Assembly: GCA_965207735.1 (NCBI GenBank)
Contig: OZ242296.1
Location: 3,104,001-3,168,000, forward strand
Source of the DNA: Candidatus Versatilivorator sp.
Lineage (GTDB): Bacteria; Acidobacteriota; Terriglobia; Versatilivoradales; Versatilivoraceae
Direction: 5' to 3'
DNA: 64,000 bases
Position 1 is the stretch's first letter, and each line of letters starts with the position of its first letter. Both the position numbers and the translations under genes were made by a program. Shown piece after piece: positions 20,552 to 50,434 of this stretch. Under the pieces are notes generated by a model. It was given only the letters and a program-made list of their open reading frames with translations. It searched no databases and was not told where the DNA came from.

Positions 20552-20676
20552 CCCGCATTTCTCACCACGGCGCGCCCAGCGCAGTCTGTAGCCGCAGATC
20601 CCTTGAATGGCGCCAATCAAGGTACTGAAGATAAACCGCTTTTCACTATGCATTCAGCGACCTGGTGAGAAAAAGG
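20552..20676 (+). mobile_element. MITE family M, internally deleted copy
   Basis: Left end cccgcatttctcacc, right end cctggtgagaaaaagg followed by ctag. The interior (gcccagcg...ccaatcaa.gtactgaagataaa...cagcgacctgg) aligns with 37268-37360. Confidence 0.8.
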
Positions 20677-33796: not shown

Positions 33797-33965
33797 GAGG
33801 GCAGGCGGGTTCAGGCGACGCTGGGCACGCCCCAGCTTGCCTTTTCCCTTTCAGCCAAAACAGGCCCCCTCGCACGGTGTGCCCGCGACGCTCTTCGGTC
33901 GGGAGCGCACCCTGAAGGGTAAACTGCCTGCGCCAAGATCGCACCCTCTGGTGAGAAATGCAGGC
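33797..33965 (-). mobile_element. MITE family M, diverged and truncated copy in reverse orientation
   Basis: acgctcttcggtcgggagcgcaccctgaaggg...cctgcgccaagatc...ctggtgagaaatgcagg aligns with the reverse complement of 37131-37300. Confidence 0.78.
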
Positions 33966-36609: not shown

Positions 36610-37053
36610 GTGTCCGATAAAGTCCAGGTCAGTGCAGGAATTACCGCAAACTATTCGAGTGACGCTTTGCGATTCAAGGAGCATGTAACGCCGTATCGAC
36701 TTGTTCGCTGTGAGGACCTTGAGTCCCTGCGTTCCATGATGGTGAATGGCGCATTCGCCTGCGCGTTCGAAGGTGACCATTCGATCCTGGTCCCGATTCC
36801 GGACGCAGGAAGCCATGCCGGGGATGACTGGGCTTGTTTTCGCATTGACGCGGATATTCCACTGGGCACGGTCGGGATTGCCGCCGAGGTCACGGGGGTG
36901 CTGGCGGCAGCAGACATAAGCCTACTGGTGATGAGCGGTTACCGTACCGATTACTTTCTTGTCCGTGACTCGCAGCGGCAACCGGCGCGGGATGCTCTGA
37001 CTGCTGCGGGTCATCATGTCGACGTTCATCGTGAAAGTGAGGCGACATGGTGA
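36610..37053 (+). CDS. ACT-domain protein (CASTOR/ACT_7-like)
   Basis: W..F.I...IPLGTVGIAAEVTGVLAAADISLLVMSGYRTDYFLV. Start uncertain. Confidence 0.7.
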   Translation: MSDKVQVSAGITANYSSDALRFKEHVTPYRLVRCEDLESLRSMMVNGAFACAFEGDHSILVPIPDAGSHAGDDWACFRIDADIPLGTVGIAAEVTGVLAAADISLLVMSGYRTDYFLVRDSQRQPARDALTAAGHHVDVHRESEATW

Positions 37054-37130
37054 TGCGGCCTGCTGTATGGATTGTGCTCGTGGTGACGATAGCGCTCACG
37101 GTGCGAGTTACTCATCCGTGGGAAGTCTAG

Positions 37131-38242
37131 CCCGCATTTCTCACCAGGGGGCAGGATCATGGCGCAGGATTTTTCCCTTCAGCGCGTGCTCGCGACCGAA
37201 GAGCGTAGCGGTCACTACGCGCGAGGGAGCATGTGCGCGCTGAAGGGAAAAAGACAAGCCAGGGCATGCCCAGCGCCGTCTGTTACCCGCAAGCCCTTAC
37301 CAGAGAGCCAATCAAAGTACTGAAGATAAACTACTTTTCGTCATGGCACCAGCGACCTGGGTAGAGTCGAGGACTGGCGCGTTGACTATAGGGTCCGGTG
37401 GCTATTCCGTCGCTTTCGCTTCGGGCCTCAGTCCGGCTCCCTTATCACGTTTCCAGTCCCCGCTCTCCGAACCGGACGTGCGGTTTTCCCGCATCTCGGC
37501 TCTCCAGTGGGATCATGCGTCTCGCACACAGGTCCCCGCTCGCATCCGTGGACGACTCCTATGGGATTGGCACCCGTCCCCCACTCCATCCACTTCCGCT
37601 CCCGGGTTGCCGCCAGGCCTGTTGATGCCCTGACGACGCCGTCCTCCTCCGACGACCCTTTCACTTTTGCATGTGATGCTTCCGGAGTCTCCGGCCCTTT
37701 TTTGGTCGGGGTTTCAGGCTTTCGCCACTCCCGGGACCCTTCCCCCTTCGGTCACCGCTCCTCACCTGAGGCCCCTTCCCTCCACCGGTATTACCCGGCT
37801 TCTCCGGTACTACAGGCCTCTCCGCCACCCTGTCGGCCTAGACTGACTCTCGCGAGCTTCCGGTTCGGTGCGTGCCTCACCACCCACAGGGCTTCCCATG
37901 TTGCTGCCTTCTTCCCCTTCCATGCGTGCCAGCGCCACTACCCCGGCGGGTCCAAAGGGGTGCCCGCGTCGCTCGCTTCCCCCTCCGTCTTCGGCCTTCC
38001 CCATTTCTCAGGTGGGTCGGCCCCCGCATTGCCCGTTTCGAGGCCTGCTCGACGTTCACTCGCGTTCCGGCCCGCATGCTCGCTGAACCGCCTTAAGCGG
38101 CCCTTTGACACCAGAGGGCTTCAGACCATATCGTTACCTCCATGATCCGCCCTGGCTGCTACCAACCGGAGCGACAGTTGTTGGACGGGTTTCGCACCCG
38201 TTGGAAGAAGGCGCCTTTCCATGGCGCACTGAGAAATGCGGG
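37131..38242. mobile_element. MITE family M (~243 bp without the intron), 18 bp perfect TIR, CTAG on both sides, interrupted by a group II intron
   Basis: ctag|cccgcatttctcaccagg ... cctgg[intron]tgagaaatgcggg|ctag. Internal hairpin arms tttttcccttcagcgcg / cgcgctgaagggaaaaa. No transposase. Confidence 0.88.
37361..38229 (-). ncRNA. group II intron, ORF-less (869 nt)
   Basis: 5' GTGCG at 38229. Domain V GAGCCGAGATGCGGGAAAACCGCACGTCCGGTTC (37502-37469). Domain VI ends ...CTCGACTCTAC with a candidate bulged A 7 nt from the end. EBS1/EBS2 match the 5' exon. Removing it restores the MITE TIR exactly. Confidence 0.93.
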
Positions 38243-38357
38243 CTAGCGACGCCTGCCCGCGTGGGCAGATCGGTGAGAACTCTCAGTGGCTCTGGGGATT
38301 GGCAGCGACCAGGGCTGCGCAAGGCCCGGTCACTCCCGCCAACCCCGACCTTGAGTC

Positions 38358-39074
38358 TCAGAAGAAGCACAAGGCGCCCGACGCGAGCAAAAAGACGGCC
38401 ACCCACCTCCGAAACACCGTCTCCCCAACGCGAAGATGGACAAAGTGACCCAGCAGGGTCGCCGCGATCAGAGCCGGCAGCAGGCTCAGAGCCAACTGCA
38501 ACCCCTGAATGTCCAGCATCCCCTGGCGAGCATACAATCCGAGCCTCCAGGCGTATTCGACGGCAAACAGCACGATCAGCGTCGCCCGAAATGCTGCCTT
38601 GTCCAGGGCCTGGGTTGAGAGGAAGGCCACATAAGCCGGACCGCTGGTTCCGAACATCCCTCCCAGCAACCCTCCCGCAAACCCCGCCGCCAGGCCCCAT
38701 CGGCTGGACATGACCGCGCGTGAGGGCGCTTTTCGCAAGAGCACCAGGCCGACCCCAATGACGGCCGCGCCCAGGATTATCTCCATATGCCGGTTGGCCC
38801 AGGAGGCCAGCAGAAAGACTCCCAAAAGGCTACCCGGGACCGCCCCGCCAAGCAGCCGCATCAGGTTGCCCCGGTCGACCTTTCGAATGGCAGCGGGCAA
38901 CAGCAGTATGCTGAGAATCACCTCCAGAACGGATTCGACAGGAACGATGAACTTCAGGGGAAAGAACAGAGCCAGCAGGGGGATGCTGAGCAACGCCCCT
39001 CCGAACCCGGAAAAGGATCGGAAGAAAAAGGCAAACAGCACGATAACTTGAGCAGCCAGCAAGGATGGATTCAT
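38358..39074 (-). CDS. sulfite exporter TauE/SafE family membrane protein
   Basis: SFSGFGGALL, GGLLGGMFGTSGP, FRATL, about 8 TM helices. Confidence 0.85.
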   Translation of the reverse strand: MNPSLLAAQVIVLFAFFFRSFSGFGGALLSIPLLALFFPLKFIVPVESVLEVILSILLLPAAIRKVDRGNLMRLLGGAVPGSLLGVFLLASWANRHMEIILGAAVIGVGLVLLRKAPSRAVMSSRWGLAAGFAGGLLGGMFGTSGPAYVAFLSTQALDKAAFRATLIVLFAVEYAWRLGLYARQGMLDIQGLQLALSLLPALIAATLLGHFVHLRVGETVFRRWVAVFLLASGALCFF

Positions 39075-49351: not shown

Positions 49352-50419
49352 TCACAATCGGCTGCCGGAACCGAGGGGCTGCGCCACGGCTTCCCCCTCC
49401 GTCCCCTGCCGAACCGACTCCGGCTTATCCACGCTCCAGATGGAATCGGCGAAGAAACGGCAGGAATCGAACAGGTGTTCCCGGATCTTGAATCCGGACT
49501 GCGAGGCCAGCCACTCGACATCCGAAAGCGAGTACTTGCAGGAGTGCTCAGTGTGAATTGCCTCCCAGGCTTCAAAGTCAAAGGAGCGGCCGATCTGCTC
49601 GATGAAGACCGACTGCCGCTCCTGGCTGACCAGGTAGCTTTCCATGGAGCCGGAGGAGACATCGTAGGTGCCGAAATGGCGGAACTTCTCCATATCGAAG
49701 CAGCCCCCCAGTTCGCGGTTGATGCGCTCCAGCAGGTTCAGGTTGAACCGGCTGGTCAACCCCAGTGAATCGTTGTAGGCCCGAAGAAGGACGTCGATGT
49801 CCTTCTTGAGGTCGAAGCCTATCAGCATCAGATCGTCGTGATTCAGGCACTTCCAGGCACTGCGCAGAAAGGAACAGGACTCCTCCCGGGTGAAATTGCC
49901 GATGGAGGATCCCAGAAACAGCACCAGGTTTCGCCGCCGGAAGCGATGGTTCAACCACTTCAGGCCGTGGAAGTAATCTCCTACCAAGCCCTGGGTCTTC
50001 AGGTCGGGAAACCGGGCATCGAGCTCGCCGACCAGCGAACCCATGGACGATGCCGAGATGTCGATGGGCACGTACTGATAGTCCAGCCCGGACTTCAGGA
50101 ACCGTTCCAGGAAGAGAGTGGTCTTCCGGCTGAAGCCGGGGCCGAGCTCCACCAGGTTGAAGGGTTTCCCGGCCACAAAGGCGGCAATTGTGTCCCACTG
50201 GCCCTCGAGAATCTCCAGCTCGCATCCGGTCAGGTAGTATTCCGGCAGCCGGGTGATCCGGCGAAACAGCTCGCTGCCCTGCTCGTCATAGAAATACTTG
50301 GAAGGAATCGACTTGTGGGCCGCGGACAAGCCCGCCAGGACGTCCAGGGCAAAGGCGTCCCTCTCATCGAAAGAGTCGGCGCAGTCTCTCGAGCCCAGGA
50401 TTTTGACGTTAGCCCGCAT
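49352..50419 (-). CDS. egtD: L-histidine N(alpha)-methyltransferase
   Basis: IPSKYFYDEQGSELF, LPEYYLT, ELGPG, FLGSSIGNF, AYND, FNLNLL, IHTEHSCKY. Confidence 0.92.
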   Translation of the reverse strand: MRANVKILGSRDCADSFDERDAFALDVLAGLSAAHKSIPSKYFYDEQGSELFRRITRLPEYYLTGCELEILEGQWDTIAAFVAGKPFNLVELGPGFSRKTTLFLERFLKSGLDYQYVPIDISASSMGSLVGELDARFPDLKTQGLVGDYFHGLKWLNHRFRRRNLVLFLGSSIGNFTREESCSFLRSAWKCLNHDDLMLIGFDLKKDIDVLLRAYNDSLGLTSRFNLNLLERINRELGGCFDMEKFRHFGTYDVSSGSMESYLVSQERQSVFIEQIGRSFDFEAWEAIHTEHSCKYSLSDVEWLASQSGFKIREHLFDSCRFFADSIWSVDKPESVRQGTEGEAVAQPLGSGSRL

Positions 50420-50434
50420 TTCTCACCAGGTCGC
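50413..50434 (+). repeat. isolated MITE M terminal repeat (empty intron target) overlapping the egtD start
   Basis: ttag|cccgcatttctcaccaggtcgc is identical to the reconstructed right end of the 37131-38242 element. Confidence 0.8.

Follow-up and report, generated by a model that had tools for sequence, protein, structure and literature searches.

Homing of group II introns into the ends of insertion sequences (IS), and mobilisation in trans of introns without an open reading frame (ORF), have both been described. In Sinorhizobium meliloti GR4, RmInt2 invades ISRm17 at either of its inverted repeats (PMC4615759, PMC5894124), RmInt1 and RmInt2 share a bias towards the lagging-strand template (PMC4615759), and IS-homing introns are also known from enterobacteria (PMC3522654). 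In Thermosynechococcus elongatus, ORF-less TeI3 introns have been multiplied in trans by the TeI4c IEP; they trace back to one ORF deletion, and each family with its own exon-binding sites (EBS) forms a separate clade (PMC2882425). Trans-mobilised ORF-less introns were suggested for B. cereus (PMC2504315), and endonuclease ORFs are described as having been acquired modularly (PMC13190283); the literature used for comparison also includes PMC8643678 and PMC7923331.

The window analysed in this study (the whole stretch of 64,000 nt; coordinates are window positions unless prefixed by a genome) lies within a 5.26-Mb single-contig genome, G000, and other G numbers denote the genomes of relatives. 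It carries an ORF-less group II intron inserted into the terminal inverted repeat (TIR) of a MITE. A sequence-only reading of this DNA knew of no described example of such an arrangement, but RmInt2, homing into both inverted repeats of ISRm17, is one (PMC4615759). As described for RmInt2 in that source, the system is endonuclease-less, uses both inverted repeats of an IS, has recent identical copies and is biased towards the lagging-strand template. RmInt2 is a class D intron with its own RT and 7 copies, whereas the window intron is class F-type, has no ORF, is present in 28 copies and targets an IS1380-family element and mostly MITEs. With the TeI3/TeI4c introns (PMC2882425) it would share an RT acting in trans, several target families and one family at a fixed IS site. 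The T. elongatus introns, however, are of the CL1/IIB1 class with an endonuclease and visible ORF remnants, whereas the window intron shows neither a remnant nor a concordant history: 28 copies belong to one family, and the histories of domain I and the 3' half conflict. The intron is present as 28 precise insertions at one base of the IS1380/MITE TIR, and we consider it likely that it spread by retrohoming with a borrowed RT and that its lineage changed target several times through acquisition of domain I.

The intron occupies positions 37361..38229 of the minus strand (869 nt, read from 38229 to 37361), and its ends, GTGCG and CTCTAC, are those given in the sequence-only reading. Its assignment to group II was upheld by Rfam, with matches to RF02003 (group-II-D1D4-4; 38203-38060, 80.8 bits, cut-off 49) and RF00029 (Intron_gpII; 37504-37361, 41.2 bits, gathering cut-off 40). 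The RNA has a GUGYG start, an AY end, a bulged A in domain VI, the catalytic triad and bulge of domain V, and EBS1-IBS1 and alpha-alpha' pairings. The alpha motif in the loop of domain Ib (38170..38175, minus strand) pairs in 126 of 126 cells with alpha' (37968..37973, minus), which lies in a terminal loop, a class E/F feature. Domain V (37469..37502, minus) contains an AGC triad, an AC bulge, a 5-nt loop and an extra bulged A at 37496, which is not present in the co-resident RT introns, while the long domain VI (37363..37466, minus) carries the bulged branch-point A at 37367. The domain IV region (37508..37768, minus; approximately 260 nt) contains neither an ORF nor a recognisable trace of an RT: when it was aligned locally with three RT introns, nothing but low-complexity sequence scored (43-44), and BLAST returned no RT match. 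The intron RNA is class F-type, with EBS2 and EBS3 present; the terminal-loop alpha' and the 5-nt domain V loop are common to classes E and F, for which both are listed in PMC3753933. Bacterial class F/IIF introns (PMC3753933, PMC8919778) have in common with this system these two features, EBS1/2/3 and an endonuclease-less RT; the window intron differs in having no ORF and in the extra bulged A of domain V. Class C (IIC) introns lack EBS2 and insert after a hairpin; this assignment was rejected, since EBS2 is present here and the upstream flanks vary freely. Within domain IV, some 57 nt (intron nt 510-566; region 37736-37664) have an 89% match at G000:C1:4917931-4917985, beside a transposase-like region.

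Removal of the intron in silico restores, as had been predicted, a perfect TIR: the resulting element of 243 bp has an 18/18-bp TIR pair with CTAG on both flanks. On the plus strand, the left target-site duplication (CTAG, 37127..37130) is followed by the left TIR (37131..37148, 18 bp), an empty intron target. The MITE body, including the inner 5 bp of the right TIR (37356-37360, the 3' exon), extends over 37131..37360, and beyond the intron lie the outer 13 bp of the right TIR (38230..38242), which on the minus strand form the 5' exon with IBS1 and most of IBS2, and the right duplication CTAG (38243..38246), providing position -14 of IBS2. The element is flanked by a convergent ACT-domain ORF (36610..37053, plus) and by a tauE/safE gene (38358..39074, minus) in the same orientation as the intron, which ends 129 bp upstream of it and is a possible source of a read-through transcript. 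The MITE with its intron is missing from 12 of 12 loci with the tauE flank in relatives, one of which has a different element with the same TIR near this flank. In five relatives the ACT-domain gene, here located between pfkB and tauE, lies elsewhere, and pfkB is either next to tauE or separated from it by other inserts. No sigma-70-like promoter driving the window intron in the sense direction was found. One 10/12 sigma-70-like match (38105-38134, plus; 0.6 expected by chance) lies within the intron, antisense to it and directed outward past the 5' exon towards tauE.

The exon-binding sites were examined by covariation in 143 intron copies with their exons (32 domain I clusters), drawn from the own genome, 40 further stretches and 76 RT loci, with tandem-internal and truncated copies dropped; the copies are kin, and the p-values are therefore overstated. 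EBS1 (UGAGAAA, 38004..38010, minus) lies in a loop and pairs with exon positions -1 to -7, much as the sequence-only reading had placed it. Intron nt 220 and 222-226 are the best columns covarying with exon -1 and -3 to -7, position -2 being too invariant to rank. EBS2, proposed earlier as TGCGGG at 38028-38023, had to be relocated. Five of these six bases form the 5' strand of a domain Id helix (38023..38027, minus) with 37950-37946, paired in 104 of 105 cells and with compensatory change at 3 of 5 pairs, and the motif paired with its own exon no more often than after shuffling (75/150 vs 74.9, p=0.56). EBS2 is instead CGGGC (38031..38035, minus), pairing with exon -10 to -14: intron nt 196-199 are among the best covarying with exon -11 to -14, and nt 195-199 pair with the own exon at 87 of 125 positions vs 59.6 shuffled (p=1e-4; 25 non-redundant pairs). 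EBS3 (G, 37938, minus; nt 292) pairs with the first 3' exon base, C, with a Watson-Crick frequency of 0.85 at +1 vs 0.42 expected. With EBS2 at 38035-38031, the target spans -14 to +1 and thus includes the last base of the duplicated YTAR; the preference for G at -14 predicted from this pairing was not seen among G000 sites (23/28 occupied vs 102/123 empty). For class F introns EBS2 is described as dispensable for splicing (PMC3753933).

The target 13-mer occurs 157 times in the genome, vs 0.22 expected under an order-4 Markov model. The copies noted earlier at 20552, 37131 and 50413 are real: besides the left TIR of the same MITE, they are empty targets in a decayed short MITE (20552..20564, plus) and at a lone TIR-like site (50413..50425, plus). 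The near match at 33953-33965 has one mismatch and belongs to a decayed MITE fragment (33798..33965, minus; 79%).

Genome searches for an IS with the same ends, as suggested by the sequence-only reading, identified an element of 1698 bp present in 20 copies in G000, with a 465-codon frame and 18-bp TIRs. It is not a member of the IS5 family, as had been guessed: its protein matches only the IS1380 family model NF033539 (410.5 bits, cut-off 180), together with PF13701. Matching 4-bp duplications of CTAG, CTAA or TTAG (YTAR) flank 19 of the 20 copies, and the IS resembles other IS1380 members (NCBIfam NF033539) in being TIR-bounded and YTAR-duplicating. The MITE is represented by 35 full-length copies of 240-256 bp. 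It is short and multi-copy, has TIRs and a target duplication, encodes no transposase, and has its outer 17-18 bp in common with the autonomous IS, to which its interior shows no similarity beyond the ends. From the shared ends and duplications we infer that the MITE is mobilised in trans by the IS1380 transposase. The view of two nested non-autonomous elements, an intron without an ORF in a MITE without a transposase, is thus retained.

In total, 28 full intron copies were found in G000, with at least 99.6% identity; 22 are identical. All lie at the same TIR base, in agreement with the multi-copy homing proposed before. The same 13 nt precede each copy (27 exact, one with a single change), and +1 is always C. 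The hosts are 15 full MITEs, 4 short MITEs, 6 of the 20 IS copies and 3 lone TIR-like sites. The idea that the MITE terminus is the target therefore holds for the 19 copies in MITEs, but is too narrow, as the terminus also serves in the IS and at the lone sites. Among the full MITEs, 11 are occupied at the right end and 4 at the left; no element in G000 is occupied at both. Short-read contigs from two runs, X1 and X2 (possibly the assembly's own sample), had depths of 241 and 223 within the intron, compared with 8-11 for the flanking sequence, as would be expected from the copy number; a read joint skipping 869 nt was excluded as an empty allele, since its sides are short and it may represent the other TIR. 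That the intron is a dead relic or an assembly artefact is exceedingly improbable. The extra bulged A in domain V of an intron whose splicing is predicted would be compatible with it, but the 22 identical copies have distinct flanks, the depth ratio is approximately 20-30, the tertiary pairings are intact, and full-length copies also occur in 5 further genomes of the genus.

The distribution of the copies argues for repeated insertion. The lagging-strand template, for which the target is leading-strand sequence, was used by 22 of 28 copies with the origin at 4.51 Mb (p=0.004) and by 24 of 28 with the origin at 3.5 Mb or with local skew (p=0.0002), the origin being ambiguous because the skew is irregular at 3.5-4.5 Mb. 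Among elements offering both orientations, 20-22 of 25 copies are on this template; empty sites are skewed in the opposite direction (45 vs 78, Fisher p=9e-5), and 13 of the 15 RT introns show the same bias. Between occupied full MITEs the median difference is 8 nt, and one of 105 pairs is identical (5027596 and 5213340); this divergence indicates that the host MITEs predate their introns. Only one intron variant, 806C>A, is shared between copies, and its two hosts are unlike each other. Passive spread, in which one or a few insertions were multiplied as IS/MITE cargo or by gene conversion among repeats, could explain the identical MITE pair, and it is compatible with the intact state of the duplications and of the outer 13 TIR positions and with the six occupied IS copies, which are indistinguishable by sequence and may have moved as composites. 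It is nevertheless quite unlikely as a general account, as identical introns sit in divergent hosts, at both ends, in IS, MITEs and lone sites, and as transposition would not yield a replication-strand bias. Strand bias and divergent hosts together make independent retrohoming the best reading, with splicing, lariat formation and homing deduced from the genomic pattern. In the proposed mechanism, a read-through transcript would splice with the aid of an RT supplied in trans, and the lariat-RT complex would reverse-splice at the replication fork into the lagging-strand template, where the TIR is single-stranded and the inserted intron could be copied from a nascent-strand primer. Each IS or MITE would offer two opposite-facing targets, and transposition would renew them.

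Among 14 genomes of the genus, the intron junction was found in six (31, 16, 13, 8, 1 and 1 matches) and in none of the other eight, while 13 have the empty TIR. It could be proposed that the host retains the intron as a form of transposon control, because insertion would disable the IS1380 ends. Insertion does part the inner 5 bp of the TIR from the outer 13 bp, and may in this way immobilise the MITE as the sequence-only reading proposed; RmInt1 is reported to block the spread of its host IS (PMC5894124). Yet only 6 of 20 IS copies are hit, none of them at both ends in G000, there are no shared orthologous sites (the window site is empty or different in all 12 relatives' loci mentioned above), introns with this 3' half are also found at targets that have nothing to do with the TIR, and the junction is missing from eight genomes, all of which makes such retention quite unlikely. 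Outside G000, 88 distinct junctions were recovered, with YTAR at -17 in 30, an inverted partner in 17 and a downstream IS1380 transposase in 5, short flanks limiting the test; two of these five are in Gemmatimonadota records. Beyond the genus, targeting of IS1380 ends is patchy.

The expected related RT intron with the same EBS was found at G000:5004992, in the left TIR of an 88% sister IS. It has an intact 456-codon ORF and the same EBS1, EBS2 and EBS3 as the window intron. In domain I the two introns are identical at 284 of 298 nt, whereas over the last 150 nt they are only approximately 66% alike, and domain IV shows no clear homology. G000 contains 15 related RT introns, namely this one, that at 4589468 and a 13-copy family, the latter two with other targets; 14 have the full frame of 456-459 codons and one is frameshifted. 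The RT encoded at 5004992 matches TIGR04416 (332.9 bits, cut-off 300), and the co-resident RT proteins contain Pfam RVT_1 and GIIM only, with no endonuclease domain found by Pfam. Their nearest relatives come from records of Ca. Versatilivorator, Terriglobia and Bryobacterales. They show 46-53% identity to three class F proteins vs 29-30% to one class D protein, and all six that were checked of 110 plasmid matches are labelled F(g2-g5) in Table 3 of PMC8919778. On this best-hit comparison with F and D references, the co-resident RTs group with class F. Only partial copies of the same-target RT were found in G011 and G009, where RTs with other targets are intact. The helper is likely to be the RT of one of the co-resident class F introns.

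The two halves of the ORF-less introns have different histories. Trees were built from 26 introns of the genus, thinned from 42 distinct ones and including 12 ORF-less rows. In the last 150 nt these 12 form one clade (100/100), 98-100% alike internally and 65-67% alike to RT introns, while in nt 1-300 they lie beside RT introns of like target, requiring at least 3 changes, and their monophyly is rejected (p-AU 0.00018). Another ORF-less intron of the same genome, G000:1135573, occupies the target used by the RT intron 4589468, which it matches at 296 of 300 nt in domain I; before nt 398-411 it resembles this RT intron at 55 of 58 informative sites, and after that point it follows the window intron (20 of 22). 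A third type of domain I and target is found in the ORF-less copies of G004 (three sites) and of G008, with split points at nt 320-343 and 394-407. Three co-resident pairs of ORF-less and RT introns agree in domain I at 296/300, 295/297 and 296/298 nt. The domain I of the window intron matches an RT intron of G005 at 291 of 298 nt, and its 3' end is closer to RT introns from Gemmatimonadota records (81-83% alike across 160-190 nt), of which one also sits in an IS1380 end; a possible swap involving the window intron and the distant RT intron L117 gave no significant signal. The mobility of the hybrids is reflected in the three G004 copies at three sites and in a second, deleted B-type copy at G000:4261108.

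An origin of the target types without any domain swap, by convergent EBS mutation or by separate ORF deletions, would follow the route of EBS divergence by mutation described in T. elongatus (PMC2882425). We regard it as very improbable, because in the three co-resident pairs the ORF-less intron resembles its RT partner along the whole of domain I, and because separate deletions would leave RT-type domains V-VI, whereas the observed ones form their own clade and are only 65-67% alike to these. Under the domain-swap reading, a crossover in domains II-III (nt approximately 320-460) would join the domain I of an RT intron to the common ORF-less 3' half, and the hybrid would then home to sites like those of the donor. 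The preferred route is a single crossover with subsequent retrohoming, with gene conversion or template switching as alternatives. The RT divergence tracks the domain I type (83% and 91% amino acid identity), which points to a direction from RT intron to ORF-less intron. RT introns with identical 3' ends but different EBS1 also occur, and these introns appear to recombine among themselves as well. Gene conversion among intron copies has reportedly been observed in Wolbachia, so that recombination as such is not new. It seems reasonably likely that domains III/IV-VI form a long-lived protein-free chassis, which borrows the enzyme of RT introns, repeatedly captures their domain I and inherits the target.

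If this is correct, the genus provides a natural case of whole-module retargeting of a ribozyme retroelement, at least three times, the IS1380/MITE-end version being the most prolific with its 28 copies. Domain I exchange would add a way of changing targets without stepwise EBS mutation, and would show that a 3' half with only approximately 66% similarity can accept a foreign domain I. In the literature searched, which takes in few subscription papers, we found no report of homing into IS1380 or MITE ends, nor of bacterial ORF-less introns exchanging domain I. Parts of the nesting are known (IS-end homing and trans-mobilised ORF-less introns), and class F and MITE ends are additions to these strategies; the recurrent capture of domain I may be the new piece. 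The system is natural and compact, and could be used to probe how promiscuous the RTs are, what EBS2 contributes to homing in class F (a question left by PMC3753933) and the effect of TIR splitting on IS1380 transposition.

Several further arrangements were observed. In a MITE of G011 (G011:C1:2783100-2786300), ORF-less introns occupy both TIRs and face each other. At G000:C1:572744-572986, the MITE TIR runs into the first bases of the intron instead of its own and then into MITE sequence, which is likely a scar of intron loss by deletion. The copy at G000:C1:4261108 is a remnant of 84 nt of 5' end fused to 37 nt of an ORF-less-type 3' end, while at G000:C1:331225 (minus strand) roughly 20 nt of the 5' end are left as a stub, both with the correct junction. 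Head-to-tail arrays of 2-5 related introns per site were seen at nine loci, in one of which (L116) ORF-less copies of 719 nt and RT-encoding copies are mixed; double insertions have been described for RmInt2. ORF-less relatives of 909 and approximately 722 nt, in other families, were found at five loci (two in G048, three in G047 and G055); these also follow YTAR-CCC flanks, and two are within short TIR-bounded elements.

The 13-copy RT intron family (e.g., L004:1329-3323) targets a second abundant intergenic repeat, with about 139 empty look-alike sites (by a loose pattern), into which several IS1380 copies are also inserted. An IS1182-family element with a CTAG target (13 copies; e.g., C1:5025800-5029200) shares this CTAG with an IS1380/MITE TIR at 11 of its 26 ends. 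The recurring flank end gcagactc-CTAG, tried as a palindromic target, was rejected, being the end of an IS1182. TIRs abutting the left end of IS1182 contain the intron in 7 of 9 cases vs 22 of 163 others (Fisher p=6e-5); no outward sigma-70-like promoter was found at the IS1182 end. Between 3.5 and 4.5 Mb of G000, GC skew and KOPS polarity reverse locally, which suggests a large inversion that the many identical repeats could mediate. The window also contains the 5' part of a 16S rRNA gene (1-822, minus strand) and an Acido-Lenti-1 RNA (60815-60860, minus strand).
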